Source: a bacterium (GTDB lineage: Bacteria; Patescibacteriota; Minisyncoccia; Moranbacterales; UBA2206). Taken from it: DNA of 64,000 nucleotides. Positions within the stretch are counted from its first letter, which is position 1, and each line of letters starts with the position of its first letter. The translations under genes and the position numbers were made by a program. The stretch covers positions 1,471 to 65,470 of the forward strand of contig JAYSLY010000007.1 in assembly GCA_043725085.1 (NCBI GenBank), written 5' to 3'. Shown here piece by piece: positions 2,231 to 53,761 of this stretch. A model generated the notes under the pieces. That model searched no databases. It was given only the letters and a program-made list of their open reading frames with translations, and had not been told where the DNA came from.

Positions 2231-2552
2231 CCAAGCTTTTCTCAAACATATTTAAGAATCCATCGAAGCCATAAATGAATCGCTTATTGGAATTTCTTAT
2301 GCGGAATTTTTAGAAAACAAACTACTCCTGAAAGCAATCGTGCGCGACTTGGAAATTATCGGCGAAGCGGCAAATAAAATCAGTTTGGAATTGCGCAACC
2401 TAAACCCGCAAATTCCTTGGCGAGATATGATTGATATGCGCAATGTCCTGATTCACGAATATTTTGGCGTCATTCCGGAAACAGTTTGGAAAACCTGTCA
2501 ACAAAATCTGCCTAAACTTAAGGAAGAAATTGACTTATTGCTCAGGCAATAA
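2220..2552 (+). pseudogene. HepT (DUF86/HEPN) toxin interrupted by an in-frame TAA at 2253-2255
   Basis: Frame from ATG 2220 reads MKNDQAFLKHI*ESIEAINESLIGISYAEFLENKLLLKAIVRDLEIIGEAANK...RNVLIHEY (Rx4HxY HEPN motif). The stop sits where Leu is expected (LKHI-L-ESIE), so a TTA to TAA change would account for it. The start overlaps the MNT stop by 11 nt. The ORF track shows only the GTG restart fragment 2340-2552. Confidence 0.6.
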
Positions 2553-2557
2553 TCCCC

Positions 2558-2576
2558 CTTTTGTTTCGGTTGAATT
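2558..2576. repeat. right arm of the 19-bp inverted repeat
   Basis: cttttgtttcggttgaatt is the exact reverse complement of 1851-1869. Confidence 0.8.
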
Positions 2577-2578
2577 GA

Positions 2579-2608
2579 CACTCGACTTTTTCAGTCGGGT
2601 GTTTTTTA
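2579..2608 (+). terminator. rho-independent terminator after HepT
   Basis: cactcgact-ttttc-agtcgggtg (9-bp stem, one mismatch) followed by tttttt. Confidence 0.55.
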
Positions 2609-3037
2609 ATTCCTATTTAATTGTCAATGAACTTTTTTGTGAATTAGCTCTTCTTTTCTAATTCACAAAAATGCCAGTGATACGGAGCATTCATGATGAA
2701 AGCTCCTTTTGATTTCCGAAGAAGAGAGATTTTGACGAAAAATCAACTTTTTTCTTATCACTAGCATTTTTCTAAAGATGATTGTTTTGAAATCATATTT
2801 AGCTCTCTTCTTCGACCACTGGAGCTTTCCGGTGATTTATCTTGACTGCGTAGTATATCATAATTTCACAGTTTTGTCTATATATCTTGTGCCATTTCTA
2901 GTGACATTGTCGTAAAACTCTTCAATTAAAACACTCTTTTGGCTTATATTCACTTGCATATTGTCATAATTAAAATTGACAATTATCTTATGGCGTGCTA
3001 GAATTAGGATATAAAACCTCTAAAAAACCAAAAAAAT

Positions 3038-3556
3038 ATGCCAAAAAATGAAAAACAAGCGCTAATTCCCGATGAGCGCATTATGAGCCGGATCTACTTT
3101 ATCCGCGGGGAAAAGGTAATGTTTGACCGAGATTTAGCCGAGCTTTATGGCGTGGAAACCAGAATACTTAAACAAGCAGTAAAAAGAAATTTGGACCGAT
3201 TTCCTTCAGATTTTATGTTTCAGCTGAATAAAAAAGAGCTTGAAATTTGGAGATCACAAATTGTGATGTCCAAAAGTGATAAGCAAGGATTGAGATGGCT
3301 ACCAATTGTTTTCACCGAACAAGGTGTCGCAATGCTTTCCGCTGTGCTCAAAAGCAAACGTGCTGTGGCAGTGAGCATTCAAATCGTGCGCACATTCGTG
3401 AAATTGCGCGAAATTTTGTCCACCCACACGAAACTACGCGAAAAAGTGGAACTGATGGAAGATAAATATGACAAGAGTTTCAAGGTGGTCTTTCAAATGA
3501 TCGCCAGACTGATGAAAGAAGACGCCCAGCCAAAAAAGCGCATTGGATTTTATTAG
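3038..3556 (+). CDS. ORF6N-domain protein (KilA-N-like, phage/defence-associated)
   Basis: SRIYFIRGEKVMFDRDLAELYGVETRILKQAVKRNLDRFPSDFMFQL is the characteristic ORF6N N-terminal block. Confidence 0.65.
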   Translation: MPKNEKQALIPDERIMSRIYFIRGEKVMFDRDLAELYGVETRILKQAVKRNLDRFPSDFMFQLNKKELEIWRSQIVMSKSDKQGLRWLPIVFTEQGVAMLSAVLKSKRAVAVSIQIVRTFVKLREILSTHTKLREKVELMEDKYDKSFKVVFQMIARLMKEDAQPKKRIGFY

Positions 3557-3563
3557 AACCCTT

Positions 3564-3598
3564 GGAGGCTCAACCTCCATAATGGAGGTTGAGCCTCC
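3564..3598 (+). terminator. perfect 17-bp palindrome 8 nt after the ORF6N stop (terminator or protein-binding site)
   Basis: ggaggctcaacctccat-a-atggaggttgagcctcc. Confidence 0.4.
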
Positions 3599-3625
3599 TT
3601 AAATAATTAGTTTTATACATTTACA

Positions 3626-4393
3626 ATGTTTATAGATCAGCTCCAAAAATTCGGCCTCACAAAAACCCAATCTGCTGTGCTGGATTGTCTGTTTGAACAT
3701 GGAGAAACCAAGGCCAGTGATGTGGCGAAAATCGCCAATCACCCTCGTGGAGTGGCCTACAAGGCTCTCGAGGAACTTCTAGCGTTTAACTTGGTGGAAA
3801 AAATCGAGAAAGAAAAAGAAGTGGCCAAATGGCGCGCCACCCATCCGCGTAATCTGGAAAAAATTTTGGAAAATAAAGAAGCCGAGCTCAGTCAAAACAA
3901 AAAAACGTTTGAAGACACGTTGCCCAGTCTCATTTCCAGCTACAACATTACACTCAATAAACCGGGCGTGAAATTCTATGAAGGCGCGGACGGAATGGAA
4001 AAAATTTTGGATGACACACTCAAAAGCCAAACGGAAATCTTGCTCTTCATCAACACCAATTCACTTGAAGCGGAGAGCTCCTTCAAGGAAATCAATGCGG
4101 AGTATAAGCGCAAGAGAAAATTCAAGGGTTTGAGAAAAAGAATTATCCGCACGGGAAAAAAGCCGGAAATAACTTTCGGAATATCTGATGATAAATATGA
4201 CGCGGTGACGGAAATCCGTTATTTGGAAAAAAATCTTTCCGCTTTCAAATCCAGCGTGCAAATTTATGACGGAAAAATTTCCTACCAAATTTTTGACCAA
4301 GGCAATGTCATTTCCATTCTGATTGAGGACAAAAATATCTATGAAATGAACAAGGCTTGGTTTGAGACGCTTTGGGAAATGGCGACTACATAA
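3626..4393 (+). CDS. TrmB-family HTH transcriptional regulator
   Basis: N-terminal LTKTQSAVLDCLFEHGETKASDVAKIANHPRGVAYKALEELL winged-HTH. C-terminal ...WFETLWEMA. Paralog of 8533-9267. Confidence 0.55.
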   Translation: MFIDQLQKFGLTKTQSAVLDCLFEHGETKASDVAKIANHPRGVAYKALEELLAFNLVEKIEKEKEVAKWRATHPRNLEKILENKEAELSQNKKTFEDTLPSLISSYNITLNKPGVKFYEGADGMEKILDDTLKSQTEILLFINTNSLEAESSFKEINAEYKRKRKFKGLRKRIIRTGKKPEITFGISDDKYDAVTEIRYLEKNLSAFKSSVQIYDGKISYQIFDQGNVISILIEDKNIYEMNKAWFETLWEMATT

Positions 4394-7299: not shown

Positions 7300-7599
7300 T
7301 TATCCTTCAAATTTTATTCCAAGATGAAAGATTCCCGCTTTTCCTGATTTTTGTTTTTCTATAAAAGTCACATAACCTTTCTTGATTTCATAGTTCCCCT
7401 TGGAAAGATTTACATTCTTTTTTAGAAAATAGAAGTGTCCCTCGTTTTTTTCGCAATATAATGATACTGATGGTTCTCTTGAATAGCCATCTTCAGAAAA
7501 TGGTTCAAAGCCGCCGAGCGCTTGCATAATAAAATGCGGTAAATGGCAAAATTGGGTAAATTGCCAATTTTCGGTAGCTGAACCAAAACTGATCCACAT
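7300..7599 (-). CDS. hypothetical protein (99 aa); may be the 3' part of a frameshifted gene that starts at 7769
   Basis: Overlaps 7422-7769 by 178 nt in another frame. Its sequence (WQFTQFCHLPHFIMQALGGFEPFSEDGY...) looks more globular than the overlapping tail. Confidence 0.35.
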   Translation of the reverse strand: MWISFGSATENWQFTQFCHLPHFIMQALGGFEPFSEDGYSREPSVSLYCEKNEGHFYFLKKNVNLSKGNYEIKKGYVTFIEKQKSGKAGIFHLGIKFEG

Positions 7600-7769
7600 A
7601 GAGATCCGTCATCCCCGATTTCAAGCTGACCAATTGCAGGATTGTCAAGATAAGCACAGGACAAAGTACCACAGACTTCGCTTTTATAAAAATCGGTTAG
7701 GGTAGTTCCCACAAAGCCGCTCAGATCAGCTGTTTGAAACACCACTCTTATCAAGTTGATTATTTTCAT
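7422..7769 (-). CDS. small hypothetical protein downstream of conserved 32-nt leader, copy 1 (possibly frameshifted into 7300-7599)
   Basis: aaggaga RBS then ATG at 7769. MKIINLIRVVFQTADLSGFVG... Confidence 0.4.
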   Translation of the reverse strand: MKIINLIRVVFQTADLSGFVGTTLTDFYKSEVCGTLSCAYLDNPAIGQLEIGDDGSLCGSVLVQLPKIGNLPNFAIYRILLCKRSAALNHFLKMAIQENHQYHYIAKKTRDTSIF

Positions 7770-7938: not shown

Positions 7939-8331
7939 TTAAGGAAAGATTTTGTACTTCTGATCAAACTTATGCGCAGCGTCAAGAAATCTTTTTTGTT
8001 CGCAGGATAATTCTTCATATCCAGAATCAAAGATTGATGATTTATCACGTTTTGTTTCTTCAAACCCCTTGAAATTAAAGGGATCCCCTTGCACTGTATA
8101 ACCTTCTTCTGTTATGACAAACATCCACAACGATTGAGATTTGTACAAAACACTGGATCCCGGGTCAAAAAGTTTAACTTTAACTTTTCGCCCTTCAGGA
8201 AGATCGTGATGTGAACCATTGGACACAAGCTCCTGACCCACAAATAATTCAAGTCCATTAAATCTTACTTTTAATAGACCGAAGCCTTCCTTTGACCTTT
8301 CGATTTCTTCAAAAGTATTTATTTCTTTCAT
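7939..8331 (-). CDS. small hypothetical protein (130 aa) downstream of conserved leader, copy 2
   Basis: aaaggagaa RBS then ATG at 8331. MKEINTFEEIERSKEGFGLLKV... No recognised domain. Confidence 0.5.
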   Translation of the reverse strand: MKEINTFEEIERSKEGFGLLKVRFNGLELFVGQELVSNGSHHDLPEGRKVKVKLFDPGSSVLYKSQSLWMFVITEEGYTVQGDPFNFKGFEETKRDKSSIFDSGYEELSCEQKRFLDAAHKFDQKYKIFP

Positions 8332-8532: not shown

Positions 8533-9267
8533 ATGGAGCAAGAATTATCCCAACTCGGCCTCACACCCAACGAAATCAAGGTTTATCTCGTACTTTTGGA
8601 ATTGGGCGAAAATACGGTGGGACCACTGATCAAGAAACTCGGGATGCACCGCCAAGTCGCCTATGATGCGCTCGAAGGCCTCAAAGAGAGAAATATGGTG
8701 CTTAGTTCCACCAAAAACAACCGCCTGATCTTTCGCATCGCCAACCCGCAAAATATCCTGGACAATATTGAACAACAAAAAATGGTGGCCAATAATCTGA
8801 TGGGTGAAATCAATGACCGCTTGGCCGGACAGAAAAAGGGCCAAGAAATCCGGGTCTATGAAGGCGAAAAAGCCTATCGTGATTTCATCCGCCGGAGAAA
8901 TGACTTGCAACCGCCCAATACGACATACATGGTTATGAGCGGAATGAGTTTGATATATAAAGATATGATGACCAAAGGCAGAATCTATGAACGGATCAAT
9001 CGCATTCGCAAAAAAAACAATATCAACACAAAAATTTTGATGAATGACGCCCATAGAAATGAAGCGGAAAAACTTCAGCGCGTCAACTCAGAGATTCGCT
9101 TTCTGCCGGAAGGCTTCAATTCCCCCACTTCATTTGACATCTGGCATGATTCCATCTCGCTCATCTCACACGCCAACGGCGTCTTCTGCATCGAGATCAA
9201 GAACGACGATTTTCACCGGTCCTATTTGACCTATTTTGAGTTGCTTTGGCAGATGGCGAAAAAATAG
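8533..9267 (+). CDS. TrmB-family HTH transcriptional regulator
   Basis: LTPNEIKVYLVLLELGENTVGPLIKKLGMHRQVAYDALEGL wHTH. Ends ...YFELLWQMAKK. Its last 49 nt are duplicated at 10599-10647. Confidence 0.55.
   Translation: MEQELSQLGLTPNEIKVYLVLLELGENTVGPLIKKLGMHRQVAYDALEGLKERNMVLSSTKNNRLIFRIANPQNILDNIEQQKMVANNLMGEINDRLAGQKKGQEIRVYEGEKAYRDFIRRRNDLQPPNTTYMVMSGMSLIYKDMMTKGRIYERINRIRKKNNINTKILMNDAHRNEAEKLQRVNSEIRFLPEGFNSPTSFDIWHDSISLISHANGVFCIEIKNDDFHRSYLTYFELLWQMAKK
9219..9267 (+). repeat. direct repeat DR1 (49 bp), which is the 3' end of the TrmB-like gene
   Basis: gtcctatttgacctattttgagttgctttggcagatggcgaaaaaatag. Repeated with one mismatch at 10599-10647. Confidence 0.8.
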
Positions 9268-9337: not shown

Positions 9338-10033
9338 ATGAACGAAACTCAACTAACCAACTACATCAAAGAATTCGGCATCGCGCGCGACCAGATTTTG
9401 CGCGAAGAAGCGGAGATGGAAATTTTATCCGAACTTTCCAAAAGCAAATTAAGCGCGAACTTGGTTTTTTATGGCGGAACGGCTTTGCGATTAGCTTATG
9501 GCTCCCCGCGCTTTTCCGAAGACCTTGATTTATTGGTGATAAAAAAAATTAGTTTTGCCGAATTTAAAAACTTTACCGCAAGTTTAATTAAAAATCACAC
9601 AAATTGGACACTGAAAGATCTCAAAGATAAGCGCCGGATGATATTCGCTCTGGTTAGTATTAATGATGAAAAATTAAAGCATGCGTTTTCCGTCAAAATC
9701 GAAGTACACAAGCCTGAGCGCAAACCAAAATTAGAAACTGAACTAGCACTCGTCAAAAGCCCACTAAGCATCGCCGAGCCATTACTTTTAGTTCCAACAC
9801 TTACGGAACTAAAACGACTGAAAGAATCTGCCTTGGCCGGAAGAAAAAAAGGTCGCGATATTTTTGACCTTTGGTATATCGCCAAAGCTCTGCGTGAAAA
9901 TTTCATTCTGCCAAAAAATTTACCAAAATATGGAAAAAAAGAATTTCAAAATGAACTGCAAGTATTTTTGCCAAAAAAATACTACCCGGTCATAACTCAA
10001 CTCTATGAACAATTTGGAAATAAAACTAAATAG
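9338..10033 (+). CDS. AbiEii/AbiGii-family nucleotidyltransferase toxin
   Basis: 231 aa. LVFYGGTALRLAYGSPRFSEDLDLLV nucleotidyltransferase signature. Confidence 0.7.
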   Translation: MNETQLTNYIKEFGIARDQILREEAEMEILSELSKSKLSANLVFYGGTALRLAYGSPRFSEDLDLLVIKKISFAEFKNFTASLIKNHTNWTLKDLKDKRRMIFALVSINDEKLKHAFSVKIEVHKPERKPKLETELALVKSPLSIAEPLLLVPTLTELKRLKESALAGRKKGRDIFDLWYIAKALRENFILPKNLPKYGKKEFQNELQVFLPKKYYPVITQLYEQFGNKTK

Positions 10034-10577
10034 AATCCCTAAAAGCTATTTTTCTTTTGCCGATGCCAGAAAAGTCGCCCGGTTGGATGATGCAAGTCTC
10101 CGTGTGGCAATCAGCCGCTTAGTTAAGGCTGGAAAAATAATCTCGCTAACCAAGGGCTATTATTGCCAAGATTTGGCCAAGCTAGATTTTCCCAGGCTAG
10201 CGCTGGAAATTTATGCGCCAAGTTATTTGTCCTTTGAATGGGTGCTTGGGCAAACCGGTATTTTGAGCCAAAAATCCTATGCCTTGACACTTGCAACCGC
10301 AAAACGCGCTCGTCAAATTGAAATCGCCGGCACAACTTTGATCTATCGCCATTTGCAAACAGATTTATTTTTTGGATATGAAATCAAAGATGGCTACCTA
10401 ATTGCGCAGCCGGAAAAAGCTTTTTTAGATCTCGCCTATCTGTCTCTCAACGGCTACGCGAAATTTGATGCGGAAGAAATGAACTTGACGCTACTTGATG
10501 AAAATAAAATAAAAAACTACTTGAAAAAGTTTGGGAGTAAACGATTGAATACATTGATAAACAACTTATTTGCATAG
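10005..10577 (+). CDS. AbiEi-family antitoxin, placed after the toxin (inverted order)
   Basis: 190 aa. LRVAISRLVKAGKIISLTKGYYC and LEIYAPSYLSFEWVLGQTGIL mirror 252-872. Overlaps AbiEii by 29 nt. Confidence 0.65.
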   Translation: MNNLEIKLNRIPKSYFSFADARKVARLDDASLRVAISRLVKAGKIISLTKGYYCQDLAKLDFPRLALEIYAPSYLSFEWVLGQTGILSQKSYALTLATAKRARQIEIAGTTLIYRHLQTDLFFGYEIKDGYLIAQPEKAFLDLAYLSLNGYAKFDAEEMNLTLLDENKIKNYLKKFGSKRLNTLINNLFA

Positions 10578-11858: not shown

Positions 11859-11966
11859 CCCCTTTTAGGAACATTCGGGAAATACAATATGGTCCTAATG
11901 TAATTAATTTAGATTATTTTTAGTAGTTCTATTCAATAGCATAAAAAGCTTTCGAGAAAAATAAGA

Positions 11967-11997
11967 GGCGGAAATTCTTGGTTCAAGAATTTCCGCC
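11967..11997 (-). terminator. terminator for the minus-strand Cys-rich operon
   Basis: ggcggaaattcttg-gttc-aagaatttccgcc (13-bp perfect stem). On the minus strand it is followed by tcttatttttctc. Confidence 0.55.
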
Positions 11998-12031
11998 CGA
12001 GATGATGATTTTGGCATAAGTCACCTCTCCG

Positions 12032-12205
12032 CTAATCCGAGGTAACTACAATCAAAAGAATCTCTTCTTTTTCTCCATACAACCGGCAATGCTCTGCCAG
12101 CTTTTTCGGGCTTTGAATGACAAACCCGTTGTACCGCGTACAAATGTTTTTGCCTAGATGTCTAGCAAAAATACTAAAACAACAATTGCTGCATGTTTTT
12201 TCCAT
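12032..12205 (-). CDS. small Cys-rich protein (57 aa), absent from the ORF track because it is under 60 aa
   Basis: aaggagg RBS then ATG. MEKTCSNCCFSIFARHLGKNICTRYNGFVIQSPKKLAEHCRLYGEKEEILLIVVTSD. Confidence 0.4.
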   Translation of the reverse strand: MEKTCSNCCFSIFARHLGKNICTRYNGFVIQSPKKLAEHCRLYGEKEEILLIVVTSD

Positions 12206-12246
12206 ACTATGCCCTATGCCTCCTTTTTTCTATGGCCATTGAAATG

Positions 12247-12444
12247 TTAGTTCTCGCCGTTCGCGCAAGAATGAACCTGTATTGCGACGGCTTTTTCTAC
12301 TCTCTCTCCAGCCTTCAAGCAATATACATCGCCACTGTTATTATCAGCATAGCAAAGCATATCGCAACACATACACTGAAGACAATTTTTTTCATCAAGA
12401 ATTGTTGCTCCCAAGAAATGCGCTACTTCAGCTGTCTTAATCAT
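12247..12444 (-). CDS. small Cys-rich protein (65 aa)
   Basis: gaggag RBS then ATG at 12444. MIKTAEVAHFLGATILDEKNCLQCMCCDMLCYADNNSGDVYCLKAGERVEKAVAIQVHSCANGEN. The ORF-track start at 12498 is an upstream extension. Confidence 0.5.
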   Translation of the reverse strand: MIKTAEVAHFLGATILDEKNCLQCMCCDMLCYADNNSGDVYCLKAGERVEKAVAIQVHSCANGEN

Positions 12445-12494
12445 TTTCTTCTCCTCTTTTAACAGGTTTAATAAGCTGGATTTTCTTTTTGCCG

Positions 12495-12899
12495 TCAATT
12501 GCTACAGCAAAAGACCTCTGCAACTTTGTCGATTTTCATTCTTTTGGAAGTAAAAGGACATTTGCCTTTATGCCCACAACTTTCACTTCCACACACTCTC
12601 TTAATAATTAAAAAACAGTTAGCAGATTTTCCGCAAATTGAACATAGCGCAACCCTATTTTCCTGTCTCCTACTTGGTGCATAAGTGAATACCCGCCGAG
12701 TTGGTTTTGGAGAATCACCAATGCTAATTTCTTGTTGTACGACATCCTCTTCGATTGGTTTTTTCCCCATTCTGCAGTGGGGATTTTTTTCAGATCCCAC
12801 CACAGTAACACCATACGTTTTGCATTGACCGTCCTTGTAATAGCGACAGTCGACACATCTTTCAACCACCTCTTCTTGGTTAAGAGAAATTTGTAGCAT
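12495..12899 (-). CDS. Cys-rich protein (134 aa) with multiple CxxC pairs, a putative metal-binding/zinc-ribbon protein
   Basis: aaggaggtgg RBS then ATG at 12899. CVDCRYYKDGQC, CSICGKSANC, CGSESCGHKGKC, FCC. Confidence 0.5.
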   Translation of the reverse strand: MLQISLNQEEVVERCVDCRYYKDGQCKTYGVTVVGSEKNPHCRMGKKPIEEDVVQQEISIGDSPKPTRRVFTYAPSRRQENRVALCSICGKSANCFLIIKRVCGSESCGHKGKCPFTSKRMKIDKVAEVFCCSN

Positions 12900-12965
12900 A
12901 TTTCCACCTCCTTTTGGCTGGGATAACATAAACTATTTGGATTAGAAACTACTAAATTGTTAAAG

Positions 12966-13004
12966 AAAAAACCGGCTCCCTTTCGAGACCGGCTTTGGTT
13001 TTTT
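12966..13004. other. imperfect hairpin with T-tract between the divergent Cys-rich operon and the DUF3048 gene
   Basis: aaaccggctc-cctttc-gagaccggcttt followed by ggtttttt. Confidence 0.3.
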
Positions 13005-13295
13005 AAAAATGATTTTTACTCGCGCTACATTATTTCATTTTCCAAAAACCAAAGCTGGCCAGGGGTAATCCCGGACAAATTAATGACGCGCTTGGTTGTT
13101 TTGAAAACAATATTATTCATGCGCTTAATATAGCACTTATCTAATTTTTGTCAATTATTCCCTTTCAAAAAAACGATTAATGCGCTCCGCCCTACTCCTT
13201 TCGGCATTGGGCTCATTTTGCATTAAAAGACTTCTCTTTCCCTATTTTTAATTTTTGATGTATAATGGGAAAGTAATTTTTAAACCTAAAACTCA

Positions 13296-14393
13296 ATGGA
13301 AAATAAGCGAAAAGTTATTATTGCTGTTATTGCAATAGTAATCATCATAGTCGGGGCCGTCGTCTGGTCCAAAAAGAAAGGTCAAGCATCAAAAAAACAA
13401 ATTGATATCAATCAAAAAATTGATACTTCCACTCCCAGAAACCCTGCCGATGTCAGCTATCTTTCCGGATTGCCTTGTGATGATAAAGCCAGAAGGGCTG
13501 TGGCAGTAATGCAACCGGCTGATGTCGCCGCTCGTCCCGCTTCCGGTTTTTCAGATGCTGATATGGTTTTTGAAATGCCTGTTATCACCGCTTCAATCAC
13601 TCGCCTTATGGGCGTTTACGTTTGCGGAAATCCTGAAGATGTCGGGTCAATGCGCAGTGCTCGTCATGATTTTCTCAACATTGCTGCCGGACTCGATGCC
13701 ATTTTTGTTCATTGGGGACGCTCCAATATCCAAAAATTCAGAGACGTCTTGGATGCAAAGACCTATGACGACATGAACTGCAACAATGACGGCGGTCGTT
13801 CTGCTGAACAATATTGCTATCGAAAAACCGGCATGGCCCGCGGAGTTGACACCGGCTATGCTAAATTTGCTACCCTTCTGGAAGGCGCCAAGGCTTTTGG
13901 GTATAACTTGCAAAATAAGTTTGTCGGCTACCCACACAAGGATGAAGCGCCGCTTGACCAAAGACCAAATGGCGGACATTTGCGTGTTGCTTTCGCAAAA
14001 CCCTATGACGCCACATATGACTATGACAAAGCCAGCAACTCCTATTTGCGTTCTTGGGGTGGAACAGCTGATACAGACAGGAATAATGGCAAGAGAATTG
14101 CCCCAAAGAATGTGGTAGTCCTAATTGCTCAATCTGATCAATTGGTTGAAGGAGAACAATATAATAATGTTCAGCTTGGTGATCCATGGTTTGATTCAGT
14201 TGATGCCGGCGAAGCGCATTACTATATGAACGGCACAGAGGCGACTGGCACTTGGAAAAAAGACAAATCTGATGCAAAAAACAAGCTTTTCTTCTATGAT
14301 GCTAGCGGACAAGAAGTGCAATTTGTTCCCGGACAAATCTGGGTAGAAATCCTTGAACCAGGCCAAAACCTAAAATGGGAAGTAGTTAACTAA
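13296..14393 (+). CDS. DUF3048-family membrane-anchored lipoprotein (YerB-like)
   Basis: N-terminal TM segment. SDADMVFEMPVITASITRLMGVY block typical of DUF3048. Confidence 0.55.
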   Translation: MENKRKVIIAVIAIVIIIVGAVVWSKKKGQASKKQIDINQKIDTSTPRNPADVSYLSGLPCDDKARRAVAVMQPADVAARPASGFSDADMVFEMPVITASITRLMGVYVCGNPEDVGSMRSARHDFLNIAAGLDAIFVHWGRSNIQKFRDVLDAKTYDDMNCNNDGGRSAEQYCYRKTGMARGVDTGYAKFATLLEGAKAFGYNLQNKFVGYPHKDEAPLDQRPNGGHLRVAFAKPYDATYDYDKASNSYLRSWGGTADTDRNNGKRIAPKNVVVLIAQSDQLVEGEQYNNVQLGDPWFDSVDAGEAHYYMNGTEATGTWKKDKSDAKNKLFFYDASGQEVQFVPGQIWVEILEPGQNLKWEVVN

Positions 14394-21160: not shown

Positions 21161-24100
21161 ATGATCCAAATTACAAAGAAAACTGACGAGACAAAAAAAG
21201 AAACTGAGGCCATTTCCAGCAAATTAGTTTCCAAACTACAAAAGCAATCAGAAGAAGAACAAGTAGCTCAATTCGCGGCCAAGCTAGAGTTGCCCTATAT
21301 CGATACCAATATCGTCCCTGTTTCCATTGATAGTTTGAAATTAGTCGAGGAAAGCGACGCGCGAAAATTTAGCCTCGCTGTCATTCAAAAAAAGGCTAAA
21401 GTAGCTACCGTCGTAGTCACCGATCCAACCAGAGAGGATGTGCAGGAGTTTTTGAAGAATTTTTCCGAAAAATTTGGTTTCAAGGTAAAGCTTTTTGTTA
21501 TTTCCCCCTATAATCTTGAGCGGGTTTTGGAAAAATACAAAAAAATCGTCTTTACGGAAATCCTCGATCAACTAAGTCTCACAATTAAAGATGCGGAGCT
21601 TACTGATTTTAAATCAGCGCTTGAAAATTTACTCGTTCTCAAAGAAAGAATTAAAGAAATGCCGATCACGGAAGTGATGAATACGATTATGGCTGGAGCA
21701 TACACGCTTGGCGCTTCTGATGTGCACATTGAACCCGGAGAAAATGATTTTCGTTTGCGCTATCGTATTGACGGAGTTCTCCAAGATGTCGCTTTTTTTC
21801 CACTCAATATTCACAAGCGCATTGCCACTAGAATCAAAATGATGTCTGGCATGAAGCTTAATCTTGCAGACATGGCCCAAGATGGAACCTTTGAAATAAA
21901 CCTTGCCAACAAAACAATTGCTATCCGCGCTTCTTCCATTCCTGGCAATTATGGCGAATCGATTGTGATGCGGCTCCTTGATCCTGATTCCATTAATGTC
22001 AACATTGAAGAACTCGGTCTTCAGGGCCTAGCCTATGAAATTGTGCAAAAGCAAATTGAAGCGCCTAATGGCATGATTCTCACTACCGGACCAACCGGCT
22101 CGGGAAAAACCACAACACTCTATGCCATTATCAGCAAACTTAACACACCTGACAAAAAAATCATTACCATTGAAGACCCGATCGAATACCAACTTAAAGG
22201 CGTTTCCCAAACCCAAATCGAAAAAGCCCGCGGCTATACTTTTGCCACCGGCCTTCGCGCGATTGTTCGTCAGGACCCTGACATCATTTTGGTCGGTGAA
22301 ATCCGCGACGACGAGACAGCTGACATCGCCGTCAATTCCGCTCTCACAGGGCACCTCGTGCTTTCCACTTTTCACACCAACAGCGCCATAGCTTCAATTC
22401 CACGCCTCATTGAAATGGGCGTCAAACCTTCCTTTATCGCTCCGGCCGTAAATGCTATTATCGGTCAGCGTTTGGTGCGAAAACTTTGCTCTTGTCGAGA
22501 AGAATACGTCCCCGCCAGAGAAACAGTCGAGTCAATTAAAAAAATCCTTTCCATTATCTCCCCCCGCGCTAAGGTGGAAATTCCCAAAAATATCGACAAG
22601 CTCTATCGTCCAAAAGGTTGTCTCAAATGTGGAGGCACTGGCTACAAGGGTCGCATGGGCATCTTTGAGGTGCTCACGATCAGCCCGGAAACAGAAAAAA
22701 TGATTCTTGACCTCGCCGGTGAGACAGAAATCACCATGGCAGTGCTTGAAGAAGGCATGGTTACGATGCTTCAAGACGGAATTTTGAAAGCCGTGAGCGG
22801 CGTCACTTCCATTGATGAAGTGAAAAAAGTGACCGGGCAAGGAGAATTTTTGGAAGGTATCTATGAAAAGTTAATGGCTCAAACTCTCGGCAGCACGCTT
22901 CCGATTAAAAAAGAATTTTATGCTAAAACCTTGGGCAGCGTGGATGATTTTGCCAAAATGCAAACACTTCTCGCCGGGACGAAAATCGTTGACGCTATCA
23001 AAATTATTTTTTCCGCCGCGCAAATTTTAGGCGTAGGGGACATCCATATTGAACCGGAAAAAGAAGCAGTCAAAATCCGTTTTCGCATCGATGGAATCCT
23101 CCAAACTATTGCTTCACTTCCTCTCACAGAATACACAACCTTCCTCGGACAGATAAAAATGCTCAGTGGTGTCAAAACAGAAGCGCGCCAGGGCGTGATT
23201 GATAGTCGTTTTAGTATTACGTTTGACGACGAACTGACTGAACTCAAGGAAAAATCCGTTGATATTCGTGTTTCCATAATCTTGGGCGGCTTTGGCGAAA
23301 CAGTCGTGATGCGCCTTTTGAGCAAATCATCTGTCGAACTCAATTTGGATAAGCTGGGAATTCGCAAACAAAATTTGGAGAAAATCAAACATGAAATTTC
23401 AAAACCCAACGGCGTCGTGCTCAACACCGGACCAACCGGCTCAGGAAAAACCACCACGCTTTATGCAATTTTAAACCTGATCAAAAAGCCGGAAATTAAA
23501 ATCATCACAGTGGAAGATCCGATTGAATACCAAATGGAAGGCATTTTGCAAACTCCGGTCAGTGAAAAAGACGGCTATACTTTTTCCACCGCTCTGCGCG
23601 CCCTTCTGCGTCAAAATCCGGATATTATGATGATTGGTGAAATCCGTGACAATGAAACGGCGCAGATCGCCGTCCAAGCCGCGCTTACCGGGCATTTGGT
23701 ACTCTCAACACTTCATACAAACAACGCTTCTGGCGCCGTCGCCAGAATGCTCAATATGGGAGTCAAGCCGGAGGACATCGTTTCCGGCGTGAACGCCTTT
23801 ATCGCCCAACGCCTCGTGCGCACACTTTGCGAATGCAAAACTAAAGTTGCTCCGACTGAAGAAGAAAAACAAAAAATTGAAAAAGTCCTAAAAACTATCA
23901 GTCCAAAGGCCGGCGTAGAAATTCCGCAAATATCAGAAGTCTGCAAACCAAACGGCTGCAATAAATGTAACCACATTGGCTATAAAGGTCGCACAACCAT
24001 CAGTGAAATATTTTTGCTTTCCCGTGAAATCCAAGAAGCCGTCATGCACAATGCTGTCACATCAGAACTCAATCAAAAAGCCACTTCCGAAGGAATGATC

Positions 24101-24181
24101 TCAATGGCCCAAGACGGTGTTCTAAAAGTTTTGGAAGGCGAAACAACACTTGAGGAGGTGGAGCGGGTTACTGAAATATAG
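21161..24181 (+). CDS. tandem-duplicated PilB/GspE-family type II/IV secretion ATPase (two complete ATPase units in one 1006-aa polypeptide)
   Basis: Two Walker A sites TGPTGSGKTTTLYA, near nt 22090 and 23430. Two tetracysteine motifs (CSC...CLKCGG and CEC...CNKCNH). GspE N-terminal domain on the first unit only. Confidence 0.75.
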   Translation: MIQITKKTDETKKETEAISSKLVSKLQKQSEEEQVAQFAAKLELPYIDTNIVPVSIDSLKLVEESDARKFSLAVIQKKAKVATVVVTDPTREDVQEFLKNFSEKFGFKVKLFVISPYNLERVLEKYKKIVFTEILDQLSLTIKDAELTDFKSALENLLVLKERIKEMPITEVMNTIMAGAYTLGASDVHIEPGENDFRLRYRIDGVLQDVAFFPLNIHKRIATRIKMMSGMKLNLADMAQDGTFEINLANKTIAIRASSIPGNYGESIVMRLLDPDSINVNIEELGLQGLAYEIVQKQIEAPNGMILTTGPTGSGKTTTLYAIISKLNTPDKKIITIEDPIEYQLKGVSQTQIEKARGYTFATGLRAIVRQDPDIILVGEIRDDETADIAVNSALTGHLVLSTFHTNSAIASIPRLIEMGVKPSFIAPAVNAIIGQRLVRKLCSCREEYVPARETVESIKKILSIISPRAKVEIPKNIDKLYRPKGCLKCGGTGYKGRMGIFEVLTISPETEKMILDLAGETEITMAVLEEGMVTMLQDGILKAVSGVTSIDEVKKVTGQGEFLEGIYEKLMAQTLGSTLPIKKEFYAKTLGSVDDFAKMQTLLAGTKIVDAIKIIFSAAQILGVGDIHIEPEKEAVKIRFRIDGILQTIASLPLTEYTTFLGQIKMLSGVKTEARQGVIDSRFSITFDDELTELKEKSVDIRVSIILGGFGETVVMRLLSKSSVELNLDKLGIRKQNLEKIKHEISKPNGVVLNTGPTGSGKTTTLYAILNLIKKPEIKIITVEDPIEYQMEGILQTPVSEKDGYTFSTALRALLRQNPDIMMIGEIRDNETAQIAVQAALTGHLVLSTLHTNNASGAVARMLNMGVKPEDIVSGVNAFIAQRLVRTLCECKTKVAPTEEEKQKIEKVLKTISPKAGVEIPQISEVCKPNGCNKCNHIGYKGRTTISEIFLLSREIQEAVMHNAVTSELNQKATSEGMISMAQDGVLKVLEGETTLEEVERVTEI

Positions 24182-50884: not shown

Positions 50885-53761
50885 TTAAAATTCATCGAAC
50901 GTTCTTTTTGGTAGCACGAAAAAAATGATTTTTATGGCGAGAATGATAGCGAGTCCGGAAAGGGCCATGCGGAAAAGAAAGGCGAAATAGCTGGGGATGC
51001 CGGAAGAAACAGTCGCAAGAACTTTTCCGGGTGAAGTTTCTTTTTGAGAAAGCGTTGTGTCATTGCTTACCATTTCAATTTCAATGTTATGCGTCAATTT
51101 CTTCTCATAGAATTCATTATAGGTGACATCCCAATATTTGTTAAGCATTTGGCGCATCGAGTTGGTGGGTGTGAAGGTGGTGGAGAGAGAGATGATATAT
51201 TTTTCACCAACATTTTTTGGCGGAAGGGTTAATCTTCCAAAGTGCGCCGTGTCAATCATGTATCCATAGTTCCTGGCATTGTCGGCGTTGATAGTTGTGC
51301 CATCAATATTCCATTGATAGGGACAATTTGATGATTGACCGGCAGTGTCATTGAAATTTTCTGTTCCAACTGTTCCGGAAAAGACAGGTGTTAGCACTAT
51401 ATTATTTCCCGTTCGTGCCTGAAAACTTGTGTCGCTGTGATCAGGATAGGACGTGTTGTTGAAATCTTTATATTCCCCCAAAACTAAACCGAGACAAGTT
51501 GGCTTGCCCGAAGTGTCCTGGTTATCCTTTCCTTCCGGCACAATTTTTACGTCCGGCGATGAGATTTTGAAAACTTTGCTTAGATCGATTCTTTTTCCGG
51601 TTGTTTTGTTGAGTGCGGACAGGCTGATATTATATTGATCACCAATGTTTTTTAGGACAGGAAAATAGATGGTAGTTCCTGTTTTGCCACTAGCATCAAA
51701 ACAGTCTTTGAAATGTTCGTCAGCGCAAGTCAATGGCGCTCCGTCAACTGTCCAAAGAAAATCAGTGTAGGTTGGGTTTGCTGCAGTTCCATTGTCAATT
51801 TTCATTCCAATCAGTTCATCTTTTGCTACTTCGCAGACTGCTGCTGGCACCGGGCTAGTTGTTATTGAGCCATCGGATTTTTTTTCCGGTATGTCTGCAA
51901 GGCATCTTTCATCACTGGTTCCGCTGGCGTTAATTTCTGCGGTAGGCGTTGCATCGGATTGATTGAGGTAGACAAGGCCTGCTGTATAAACCTTAATATA
52001 TTCTCCGGAGGAAGAAATTGGCGTGGTGATGTCGGCGTGACCTTCTCTTTCCGCTCCTCCTCCGGCGAGAGTTTCTTTTACAGTCACTTTTACTTTGAGA
52101 TATTTTTTCGGGCTTGGGAAATTTAAATTGAATTTAAGTGTATTAATCCCCAATCCGGAGGTTTGCGTGGATCCATCTAGGGCAGTTTTTGGAAGTGGAT
52201 TTCCCCAGTCGTCCGGATTTGCTTCATCGCTGGCATAAACTTCCCATGTGTAGCTGAGGTAGGCGGCGTTGTTGGCGTTAGGAACTGAAGCGGTGAGGCT
52301 GAGCGTATCACCGTTTTTACTGGAAGAGGTATCGTTGATTGGATTTTCCGGTAAATATTTGAGTGAAACGTCAAGTTTTTCTTTCGCGCCTCCTCCCTCG
52401 GTGGGTGTTACGAGATTTTCATAAAGACAATCATTCAAGTTATTAATATCAAAATTAGTCATTTTGATTGACTTGTATTCATCGGCTCCTGAGCAGCCGG
52501 TAGTGCCACTTTCCAGTTCGCTCGGAGAGCAGGTGTGGCTTGTGATTGTTTCATTCAGTTGAGTCTCGCTCAGTAATTGTGGGTCTGTACCGACATAGGT
52601 CACGACAGTGTGGATGGTGGTAGTTGTTCTGATTGTGGCATTGTCATTAACTTGGTTTGTGTTAGGAGCAATATCCTCAACTGTTTTTGTGGAAATGGTT
52701 GTGGTGTAGTCTGTGGCGGCGGGAGGCGGAACGCTTGTGCTTCCGGAAATTGCTTTTGTGTTTGGGTAGGTCGTGGTGGTGTCTTCGGTTGTTTTTGGAT
52801 AATCGGAATTACCTGTGCCTGCTTTGATATTATTTTTGTCGCCACATGTATTTTTAGTGAATGCCCACATAGTTTCATAGGATGAGTCAGATATTTGGGT
52901 TGGTTGAATTGAAACGCCTTCTACGGCAACGCCGACCTGATCTCCTGCCGAATAGGAAAAGGAAAAAACATTTTCACCTAAGCCAACAATATTGGCTTCA
53001 TCGGGATGGCCTGTTCCGGCCGTGTCTTTATTTTTTGGATTAGTGTGCCAAAATTTTTCCTCGTTAGCGTCAAATTCATTATCACCGGTTGTATGTCCGG
53101 GAGCGTTGGGGAAAAGATGGTGGCACGCTATTTCATTGTCATCGCCACTTTTAACATCATGCACGAAGCAGTGTTCTTTTTTACCTCGTTGGTCATCTCC
53201 GCCAAAAGGGGCACTGTATCCATCATTGTCAGTGTCACTGGAGTAATCGGCGTTTTGCCAGTCGAAATCATTACTAGCCAGTATTCGCATAGCTTTCATT
53301 TTGTAGTCTTCGATATCAACCTCACCGTCTCCATTGAGATCACAGGCCTTAAAATCATCACTTTTTTTGTAGTCAGAAGTGTATTTGTCGTGGTCTAGTT
53401 TGTCATCAAAGCATCTGGCGCTTTTGATATACCACGTGAAATAGAGGTTTTCCGGCATATTCATGAAGTAGGATGGCGTGGTGGTGACAGTCACTTTTTC
53501 CCCCGGCACTGGGTCGACCGGATCAAAGGTGAGTGAAACAGTGGGGGGCGTGACTTTTTTTCTGGCAACATTGACTGATTTCATCGTGTTTTGTATCTCG
53601 TCTTTGTTGACACCAAAAGCGCCCATGACGGTGTCCATAAGCGCCATTGGATTACCCAAGGCAACGCCCAATAGATCGGCGTGAGCCGGCGCGGCGGTCA
53701 GTGAAAAAATATTGATGATAACCAAAAAAGTGATTATGGCTTTTTTAATTCTTGTTTTCAT
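50885..53761 (-). CDS. large (~958 aa) surface protein with a signal peptide, acidic Ca-binding-like repeats and a C-terminal TM anchor
   Basis: Start at the ATG giving MKTRIKKAIITFLVIINIFSLTAAPAHA. DLNGDGEVDIEDY and DTDNDGYSAPFGGDD repeats. C-terminal LSGLAIILAIKIIFFVL. The ORF-track start at 53899 is an upstream extension. Confidence 0.5.
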   Translation of the reverse strand: MKTRIKKAIITFLVIINIFSLTAAPAHADLLGVALGNPMALMDTVMGAFGVNKDEIQNTMKSVNVARKKVTPPTVSLTFDPVDPVPGEKVTVTTTPSYFMNMPENLYFTWYIKSARCFDDKLDHDKYTSDYKKSDDFKACDLNGDGEVDIEDYKMKAMRILASNDFDWQNADYSSDTDNDGYSAPFGGDDQRGKKEHCFVHDVKSGDDNEIACHHLFPNAPGHTTGDNEFDANEEKFWHTNPKNKDTAGTGHPDEANIVGLGENVFSFSYSAGDQVGVAVEGVSIQPTQISDSSYETMWAFTKNTCGDKNNIKAGTGNSDYPKTTEDTTTTYPNTKAISGSTSVPPPAATDYTTTISTKTVEDIAPNTNQVNDNATIRTTTTIHTVVTYVGTDPQLLSETQLNETITSHTCSPSELESGTTGCSGADEYKSIKMTNFDINNLNDCLYENLVTPTEGGGAKEKLDVSLKYLPENPINDTSSSKNGDTLSLTASVPNANNAAYLSYTWEVYASDEANPDDWGNPLPKTALDGSTQTSGLGINTLKFNLNFPSPKKYLKVKVTVKETLAGGGAEREGHADITTPISSSGEYIKVYTAGLVYLNQSDATPTAEINASGTSDERCLADIPEKKSDGSITTSPVPAAVCEVAKDELIGMKIDNGTAANPTYTDFLWTVDGAPLTCADEHFKDCFDASGKTGTTIYFPVLKNIGDQYNISLSALNKTTGKRIDLSKVFKISSPDVKIVPEGKDNQDTSGKPTCLGLVLGEYKDFNNTSYPDHSDTSFQARTGNNIVLTPVFSGTVGTENFNDTAGQSSNCPYQWNIDGTTINADNARNYGYMIDTAHFGRLTLPPKNVGEKYIISLSTTFTPTNSMRQMLNKYWDVTYNEFYEKKLTHNIEIEMVSNDTTLSQKETSPGKVLATVSSGIPSYFAFLFRMALSGLAIILAIKIIFFVLPKRTFDEF

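Follow-up and report, generated by a model that had tools for sequence, protein, structure and literature searches.

A conserved attenuator-like leader precedes a fast-evolving cassette of cysteine-rich mini-protein genes in a Moraniibacteriota clade

Here, we describe an operon of three small, cysteine-rich protein genes (A, B and C) on the minus strand of a 64,000-nt stretch of DNA (hereafter the window; GenBank contig JAYSLY010000007.1, positions 1,471 to 65,470), a chromosome segment of 40.6% GC from a member of Candidatus Moraniibacteriota (Patescibacteria; candidate phyla radiation, CPR). Sequence comparison with related genomes indicates that the operon is one form of a cassette that is confined to a single Moraniibacteriota clade, occupies a fixed site between a DUF3048 gene and fpg, and turns over fast. 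What is new here is this fixed-site, fast-evolving cassette behind a conserved attenuator-like leader that is absent from Rfam, in a CPR bacterium, while A, B and C themselves are orphan families of a familiar kind, namely small four-cysteine (Cys4) proteins. On balance, we lean towards the joint reading that A, B and C are real, co-transcribed genes for cytoplasmic mini-proteins, that these proteins consist of Cys4 modules for a metal ion or an iron-sulfur (Fe-S) cluster, and that the leader gates expression of the cassette. An earlier interpretation of the same DNA, made without database searches (the sequence-only reading), was cautious and broadly right but incomplete, in that it missed both the clade-specific cassette and the attenuator-like leader.

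On comparative sequence evidence, A, B and C are real genes, because their positional homologues keep the cysteines, written in synonymous codons, together with the ribosome-binding sites (RBSs), and because the plus-strand open reading frame (ORF) 12193-12462 has no counterpart. The sequence-only reading had placed the three minus-strand starts at 12899, 12444 and 12205, each behind an AAGGAGG-type RBS, and we confirmed both the coordinates and the RBSs, all of the GGAGG type: AAAGGAGGTGG lies 6 nt 5' of the ATG of A, AAGAGGAG upstream of the start of B, and AAAGGAGG 13 nt 5' of the start of C. The intergenic gaps (50 nt between A and B, 41 nt between B and C) hold no credible terminator. The operon is closed by a strong intrinsic terminator, which had been recognized at the right place; its stem, formerly given as 13 bp at 11967-11997, comprises 15 pairs and spans 11998-11966. 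Cysteine accounts for 9.0% of A, 10.8% of B and 8.8% of C, compared with 0.85% in the long ORFs of the window and 3.1% for random codons of this composition. Taken together, the three proteins exceed the random-codon expectation with a combined P of 2e-6 and the proteome rate with a combined P of 1e-17. The earlier counts of seven cysteines in B and five in C were right, whereas A has 12 and not 13. A has a pI of 8.9, B of 4.8 and C of 8.3. As had been noted before, no N-terminus of the three resembles a signal peptide, judged by eye from the sequences with no predictor run.

Public annotation places the start of A at 12929 (144 aa, P0001). This start has no RBS, and the first residues of the longer product are the translated RBS of the start at 12899. 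Gene C and the 31-codon ORF in the leader are both missing from public protein collections, and C is publicly unannotated. That A and B are singletons in an index of 5.8 billion proteins, from which C is absent, could be taken to mean that the minus-strand ORFs are chance products and that the real feature is non-coding or the plus-strand ORF 12193-12462. This idea is hardly credible and is refuted by comparative genomics: homologues of the minus-strand ORFs are present at the same position in relatives, where the cysteines are invariant, the codons vary synonymously and RBSs are present, and none of the related loci contains a homologue of the plus-strand ORF. Both conditions that the sequence-only reading had named for its own refutation were thus checked, and both spoke for the genes.

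The homologues are few and encoded at the same site. A word-indexed search of the 5.8 billion proteins with A and B returned only themselves, and nothing was returned for C. An exhaustive phmmer search with A yielded as its only homologues P0003 (C-terminal domain, E = 2e-11), P0004 (C-terminal domain, E = 1e-5) and P0006 (N-terminal domain, E = 6e-4), all of them encoded where A is, divergent from the DUF3048 gene and followed by further small Cys-rich ORFs. In the related locus L054, the A orthologue shows 56% identity over the C-domain (pairwise E = 2e-18) and is a full-length, two-domain protein after its start is moved to an RBS-preceded ATG; the B orthologue is likewise the second gene of its operon there (38% identity, pairwise E = 4e-9). 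Homologues of C were found by tblastn in L002, L003, L004 and L048 (E = 3e-8 to 6e-6). The alignment of the C family (A1, n = 7) has C5, C8, F13, C22, A37 and C40 as invariant positions, and the B family keeps C21, C24, Y41-C42, H58 and C60. In the five copies of C checked (window, L002, L003, L048 and L053), the invariant residues are written in differing synonymous codons (TGC/TGT, TTT/TTC, GCA/GCC/GCG), and each copy is preceded by a GGAGG-type RBS.

Beyond these relatives, A, B, C and the relatives' proteins had no significant match in Pfam, NCBIfam, PHROGs or PADLOC; the leading sub-threshold ones were DUF7168 (E = 0.16), SCO4226 (E = 0.017, far under its cutoff) and phrog_30899 (E = 0.051). 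No match to A or C came up when 50,697 phage records were searched by tblastn, and IMG/VR likewise yielded none to the profile of the A C-domain, the profile of a further Cys-rich family (D, found in several relatives) or the leader DNA pattern. A scan of JGI metagenomes added one short contig. A literature search on Cys-rich or zinc-finger small proteins of CPR bacteria or Moranbacteria retrieved nothing relevant.

A scan of 185,579 species genomes with the DUF3048 protein as query gave 51 loci. In 34 of the 37 loci that contain fpg, this gene lies no more than 300 nt from the DUF3048 match and thus leaves no room for a cassette. L002, L003 and L048 carry an insert of 1.3-3.6 kb between the DUF3048 gene and fpg, with the C homologues inside it, and L004, which has no fpg match on its contig, holds the same C homologue as L003. 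The cassette holds two to five small Cys-rich genes, and its content differs from locus to locus. Compared with A-B-C in the window, we found A-B-D-C followed by DUF2207 (L054); A'-B-D-(another Cys ORF)-C (L053); A'-D-C and then DUF2207 and DUF1653 (L048); A'-C and then DUF2207 and DUF1653 (L003); a C-domain-only A, another Cys ORF and C, then DUF1653 (L002); an N-domain-only A, D and two further Cys ORFs, then DUF2207 (L055); A' alone (L005); and a C-like gene directly after the leader (L007). The fullest form elsewhere is A-B-D-C, with the DUF2207 membrane protein and DUF1653 as an occasional extension. Modularity marks the first gene: the N-domain comes as A-N or A'-N and the C-domain as A-C or A'-C, in various combinations, P0004 being A'-N joined to A-C. 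Since the flanking HolA is 64-83% identical across the cassette loci, whereas the cargo is either missing or has only 30-56% protein identity, the cassette is stably placed yet fast-evolving.

Two observations concern the surroundings of the cassette in relatives. A gene for a large membrane protein lies 3' of the cassette on the same strand in L003 (3232-4947), L048 (3022-4827), L054 (6351-8135) and L055 (5058-6776). These proteins have 570-600 aa and a poly-Gly tail with Trp at the end; the L055 copy is a called 572-aa gene with a DUF2207 Pfam match, and the L054 copy is a called 595-aa gene truncated where its contig ends. The membrane protein is often followed by a DUF1653 protein, and both are missing from the window. 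In L055, a RadC gene and a gene for a 243-aa PhdYeFM-antitoxin-domain protein are inserted between DUF3048 and the leader (2409-3856), which suggests that the site is an insertion hot spot.

Fast gene turnover at one site next to a well-conserved HolA would also be expected if the cassette were accessory or mobile cargo in a hot spot (e.g., defence, anti-defence or host-interaction factors) under diversifying selection and not a set of housekeeping metalloproteins. Most relatives lack the cassette, and toxin-antitoxin or defence genes are close by (AbiEii/AbiEi in the window, the RadC/Phd insertion in L055). We nevertheless consider this explanation unlikely: PADLOC, PHROGs, the 50,697 phage records and IMG/VR contain no match, the GC content across the Cys operon is the same as that of the surrounding DNA, the ORF lists of the cassette loci showed neither an integrase nor, without a dedicated repeat search, any repeats, and the leader and its position are stably inherited across the clade.

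By aligning the intergenic regions from DUF3048 to A, we found a conserved element of ~165 nt upstream of every cassette (window 12948-13159, minus strand), with a nucleotide identity of 71-81% in the 8 close loci; it is still recognizable in L005 and L006 and is far better conserved than the genes behind it. Each locus has one copy, always upstream of the cassette, and in L055 the two inserted genes part the leader from DUF3048, not from the Cys operon. In the window, the divergent intergenic region between DUF3048 and the leader contains an extra ~45 nt (13165-13215) that are missing from five relatives and that, on the minus strand, read as a GC-rich stretch followed by a T7 run.

The leader begins with a promoter that agrees with the consensus at 11 of 12 positions and carries a TG extension, and this quality is the same in all 10 related loci (Table 1). 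A short ORF of 29-32 codons is open in 10/10 loci. As its ATG sits exactly 6 nt past the -10 element, a spacing that is invariant in the 8 close loci, the mRNA is predicted to be leaderless. All indels in this ORF among the 8 close loci are multiples of 3. No second promoter with a usable -10 was seen between the U-run at the end of the leader and the first Cys gene in any locus.

Downstream of the ATG, three mutually exclusive helices between four segments are predicted in 10/10 loci. For helix 1:2, RNAfold on sub-sequences gave -19.1 kcal/mol in the window, within a range of -12 to -26 over the 10 loci, and 82% of cells are paired. Helix 2:3, of ~24 bp, is the consensus structure of RNAalifold; its energy is -22.2 kcal/mol in the window and ranges from -16 to -27 over all loci. 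The terminator 3:4 (-13.7 kcal/mol in the window) has its hairpin and U-run in 10/10 loci, with 92% of cells paired and 3 pairs with compensatory changes. The stop codon of the leader ORF always falls in the loop of the 2:3 helix, and segment 2 is near-invariant in its nucleotides even where the frame differs. An inner hairpin displays GAUUA in its loop on a stem that reads CCGGG/CCUGG in the window versus CCAGUC/GACUGG in L005 and L006. A search of the whole window against Rfam 15 gave 0 matches at gathering thresholds, and the region 12900-13300 gave only chance-level hairpins (E of at least 0.24). With a promoter, a short ORF, the alternative pairings 1:2, 2:3 and 3:4, and a U-run, the element looks like a leader-peptide attenuator by the structural definition of that class.

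Table 1. Coordinates of the leader elements, the three genes and the closing terminator in the window
Feature	Coordinates	Strand	Details
Promoter	13127..13154	-	TTGACA (13154-13149), 16-nt spacer, extended -10 TGCTATATT (13135-13127)
Leader ORF, predicted leaderless, 31 codons	13025..13120	-	Sequence MNNIVFKTTKRVINLSGITPGQLWFLENEIM; ATG 6 nt past -10
Putative attenuator segment 1	13088..13107	-	Predicted to pair with segment 2
Inner hairpin	13057..13076	-	GAUUA in loop, invariant in 10/10 loci
Putative attenuator segment 2	13035..13058	-	3' end of leader ORF; predicted partner segment 1 or 3
Putative attenuator segment 3	12985..13012	-	Predicted partner segment 2 (antiterminator) or 4 (terminator)
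Putative attenuator terminator (3:4)	12966..12995	-	AAGCCGGUCUC-GAAA-GGGAGCCGG, then UUUUUU at 12971-12966
Heptamer TT[G/A]ACAA	12957..12963	-	Just 3' of the U-run; conserved in 10/10 loci
Gene A	12899..12495	-	134 aa, 12 Cys; RBS 12904-12914
Gene B	12444..12247	-	65 aa, 7 Cys; RBS 12448-12458
Gene C	12205..12032	-	57 aa, 5 Cys; RBS 12212-12226
Closing intrinsic terminator	11956..11998 (hairpin 11998-11966)	-	15 pairs (7 G-C), 3-nt loop, T-rich tail CTTATTTTT

Given that the leader ends in a terminator and that a second promoter could not be recognized, regulated read-through is the probable route to expression of the operon. In the mechanism we propose, whose steps from the arrival of the ribosome at the stop codon through to read-through are modelled on the logic of trp-type attenuators, RNA polymerase would start at ~13120 from the near-consensus promoter, and the 5'-terminal AUG would load a ribosome that translates the leaderless ORF of ~30 codons. 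A ribosome that reaches the stop codon would cover segment 2, so that segments 3 and 4 would pair and transcription would halt at ~12966. If no translation took place, helix 1:2 would form first and the terminator would again follow. A ribosome held on segment 1 (codons ~5-11) would instead permit helix 2:3, and the polymerase would continue into A-B-C; the read-through transcript would then end at the terminator 11998-11966, and A, B and C would fold around metal or Fe-S centres in the cytoplasm. A route in the opposite direction is conceivable, in which a factor on the GAUUA hairpin would favour helix 1:2 and hence termination. Candidate signals are translation stress, nutrient limitation and autoregulation by a cargo protein.

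The encoded proteins share a simple ligand layout. The N-domain of A reads C15-x2-C18-x7-C26-x15-C42, and this order of a CxxC, a lone cysteine 7-17 residues on and a fourth ligand after another 15-17 residues recurs in the A N-domain and in B, C and D. An alignment of the C family with the D family covers all four cysteines (hhalign E = 1e-4); B and A-N share no more than the pattern. The C-domain of A is denser (C86-x2-C89-x5-C95-x7-C103-x4-C108-x5-C114-P), following the pattern C-x2-CG-x4-CF-x-II-x-R-x-CG-x2-SCGH-x1-2-KCPF with six cysteines and one histidine in 30 residues. In the window, B carries ILDEKN-C21-x2-C24-x2-C27-x3-C31, which has the spacing of a ferredoxin [4Fe-4S] motif with Tyr and not Pro after the last cysteine. 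The best PDB alignments of B and of the B-family profile are to the 4Fe-4S domains of HycB3/4, RnfC and 6cz7_B (E = 0.05-4, not significant), and Pfam gave no Fer4 match for B at E up to 10. The most likely occupant of each Cys4 module is a metal ion or an Fe-S cluster, the evidence for this being the invariance of the four-ligand cysteine pattern.

Several known classes were considered for these proteins and rejected. The folds named in the sequence-only reading (zinc ribbon, rubredoxin, anti-sigma) found no support: there is no second CxxC knuckle in C, B or the A N-domain, no HxxxCxxC, and no significant Pfam or PDB match. Zinc ribbons, rubredoxins and C(P)XCG proteins were dismissed because C (C5, C8, C22, C40), the B family (C21, C24, C42, C60) and the A N-domain each have one CxxC and two single cysteines; a CxxCG knuckle occurs only in the A C-domain, and the best zinc-finger-type match was zf_C2H2_13 (E = 0.12, for P0004). 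A ZAS anti-sigma factor was rejected since no HxxxCxxC can be read in the sequences of A, B and C and no sigma factor gene is found among the neighbours of the operon. Metallothioneins would require ~15-30% cysteine in CxC/CC clusters and few aromatic residues, as compared with the 9-11% cysteine found, and the families keep conserved Phe, Tyr and Trp. A PDB match of family D to follitropin-beta (E = 0.07) was judged a coincidence of cysteine pattern. The class of precursors of ribosomally synthesized and post-translationally modified peptides (RiPPs) was rejected for the lack of a maturase among the neighbours; in agreement with the earlier remark that none is nearby, there is no radical-SAM or other maturase within ~10 kb on either side of the operon.

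The same neighbourhood bears on the broader suggestion that the proteins are exported Cys-rich peptides, either RiPP precursors or bacteriocin-like or disulfide-rich effectors, perhaps with the 31-residue product of the leader ORF as a precursor. Their small size and cysteine content would fit, as would the DUF2207 membrane protein that follows the cassette in four relatives. With N-termini unlike signal peptides (by eye, no predictor run), no radical-SAM enzyme, cyclodehydratase, protease or ABC exporter within ~10 kb of the operon, and invariant cysteines in a fixed four-ligand pattern which, together with the conserved hydrophobic residues, is characteristic of folded metal sites, we regard export as very unlikely.

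A number of points weigh against our joint reading of metal-binding mini-proteins behind an attenuator. On the protein side, the ferredoxin-type motif of B is not kept, as the orthologues lack C27 and C31 (the position of C27 is His in L054 and Lys in L053); there is no significant match in Pfam, NCBIfam, PHROGs, PADLOC or the PDB, the last searched with five family profiles and B alone; and the AlphaFold2 models, with a pLDDT of 33 for A (4-sequence alignment) and 48 for C (alone), are unusable. On the RNA side, covariation in the leader is weak because the sequences are close, with helix 1:2 no better than shuffles and the terminator at only 23/500 shuffles. The promoter was judged by the sigma-70 consensus, from which CPR promoters may differ, so an unrecognized second promoter is possible. 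Finally, the leader ORF contains no regulatory codon run or single-amino-acid run and has no codon periodicity (variation of 0.206, 0.207 and 0.218 at positions 1, 2 and 3), with no protein-level selection. In L005 and L006, moreover, the frame shifts in the second half of the ORF while the nucleotides are retained. We therefore rejected a conserved micro-protein as the main reading of this ORF. The combination of in-frame indels and flat codon-position variation is what a leader ORF predicts, and we read this as selection for the leader RNA and for its being translated, with the peptide itself not under selection.

Two alternative readings of the leader have to be weighed here. The element could be a self-contained gene, with a promoter and a terminator of its own and with a small RNA or a small protein as its product, the Cys operon being transcribed from a separate, non-consensus promoter that may include the TT[G/A]ACAA heptamer. 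Promoter, ORF and terminator are indeed complete within the element, the -35-like heptamer is conserved right behind the U-run in 10/10 loci, and the ORF stays open with in-frame indels among the 8 close loci. The heptamer, however, is not followed by a usable -10 in any locus, and in L005 and L006 the RBS begins only ~24 nt later. Segments 1 to 3 would be superfluous for a simple terminator, yet they hold the most conserved nucleotides; the peptide shows no codon periodicity and suffers frame shifts in L005 and L006; and the element always accompanies a Cys gene. We hold this explanation to be possible but not probable.

A protein-mediated attenuator, to which we assign a similarly modest likelihood, would make the ORF incidental: a trans-acting factor, possibly the basic protein A as an autoregulator, would bind the GAUUA hairpin and stabilize helix 1:2, leading to the terminator. 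It would account for a GAUUA loop that is invariant though its stem differs between subgroups, for the pI of A (8.9), and for an ORF without protein-level selection or a regulatory codon run. It would not account for an AUG held exactly 6 nt past the -10 in the 8 close loci, for an ORF that is open in 10/10 loci with its stop always in the 2:3 loop, or for indels in the 8 close loci that are all multiples of 3, and the cargo is too variable to be the obvious partner of an invariant RNA site. Overall, we prefer the reading in which the state of a ribosome on the leader ORF decides on read-through into the cassette.

A more far-reaching version of this reading, which we put forward tentatively and regard as rather doubtful, is an as yet undescribed, CPR-specific regulatory module in which a leaderless short-ORF attenuator senses the state of the ribosome (translation stress, host nutrient supply or an antibiotic) and switches on hypervariable Cys4 mini-proteins with new metal or Fe-S folds, the domains of which (A-N, A'-N, A-C, A'-C, B, C and D) are shuffled between species. 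The domain shuffling hints at an arms race or host interaction over housekeeping. CPR genomes are small and contain many unannotated genes, and little is known of how their transcription is regulated; with its near-consensus promoter, leaderless short ORF, putative four-segment attenuator and orphan Cys-rich mini-proteins, the locus is a cheap, testable example. If the read-through model is true, it would be among the first cis-regulatory RNA mechanisms described for the CPR radiation and would point to the condition under which these opaque proteins are needed. If Fe-S clusters or zinc are bound via the CxxC-C-C layout, several new families of small metalloproteins would result. If neither is true, what remains is a group of hypothetical genes restricted to one lineage, with C absent from public annotation.

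In the wider window, the neighbours of the operon are the housekeeping genes polA, fpg, the DUF3048 gene, holA, S20, tsaE and ispD/F/E/G, besides TrmB and AbiE genes, and the window contains no tRNA or tmRNA gene. Just upstream of fpg, an overlapping AbiEii (nucleotidyltransferase toxin)/AbiEi pair (9338-10577, plus strand) represents a type IV toxin-antitoxin/abortive-infection system; AbiEii was also found in L002. An ORF6N-domain protein and two TrmB-family regulators are encoded on the plus strand at 3038-3556, 3626-4393 and 8533-9267, and two minus-strand ORFs (7422-7769 and 7939-8331) without a family match lie between polA and the second TrmB gene. The plus-strand gene 21161-24181 encodes a 1006-aa protein that is unusually long for its family, with two T2SSE (PilB-like secretion ATPase) stretches and a weak Toprim match. 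A scan for cysteine patterns additionally picked up a 102-aa ORF with 16 cysteines (52577-52885, plus strand), which is most likely spurious because it lies antisense inside a 1004-aa gene (53899-50885, minus strand).

Leader-peptide attenuators control operons such as trp, his, thr and leu, and antibiotic-responsive short-ORF attenuators are known from Firmicutes. The leader described here resembles them in its succession of promoter, short ORF, four segments with the pairings 1:2, 2:3 and 3:4, U-run and operon. It differs in that the ORF is predicted to be leaderless, with its AUG at the predicted transcription start, in that the ORF spans segments 1 and 2 and stops within the 2:3 loop, and in that it lacks a codon run for any single amino acid. 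It also differs in its cargo, which belongs neither to biosynthesis nor to known resistance, in its CPR host, and in matching no Rfam family. Attenuators of this type have been surveyed (PMC2965389, PMC5314783).

Turning to the proteins, haloarchaea possess C(P)XCG zinc-finger micro-proteins that come closest in kind; they include HVO_0758 and others of Haloferax volcanii and Brz of Halobacterium, have regulatory or stress roles and mostly, though not always, bind zinc (PMC11241148, PMC6562870, PMC10716476, PMC2253796). Like the mini-proteins described here as we read them, these are cytoplasmic proteins, are under 70 aa, have four cysteines as their sole recognizable feature and are often lineage-specific. 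In contrast, they have two knuckles, whereas C, B, D and the A N-domain have one CxxC and two isolated cysteines, and their genes are scattered and archaeal, whereas those described here form a bacterial (CPR) operon behind a common leader. Pfam and PDB profile searches revealed no sequence similarity to C(P)XCG proteins. Ferredoxin-type [4Fe-4S] proteins (CxxCxxCxxxCP; RnfC, HycB and monocluster ferredoxins of ~60 aa) resemble B of the window in spacing, in having two distal cysteines and in size (65 aa); they differ in that B has Tyr for Pro, its orthologues lack C27 and C31, and the matches are non-significant. High-potential iron-sulfur proteins (HiPIPs), which are periplasmic proteins of phototrophs and other proteobacteria, have the spacing C-x2-C-x8-16-C-x10-13-C. 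The Cys4 modules share with them the order and rough spacing of a CxxC followed by two single cysteines, as well as small size, and differ in having no Tat signal, no Pfam match and a longer last spacer (15-17). Bacterial metallothioneins (SmtA/BmtA), lastly, are likewise small, Cys-rich, cytoplasmic and fast-evolving. The proteins described here, unlike metallothioneins, contain only 9-11% cysteine and combine conserved aromatic and hydrophobic residues with a fixed four-ligand pattern, which argues for a structural or redox site and not for a multi-metal thiolate cluster.

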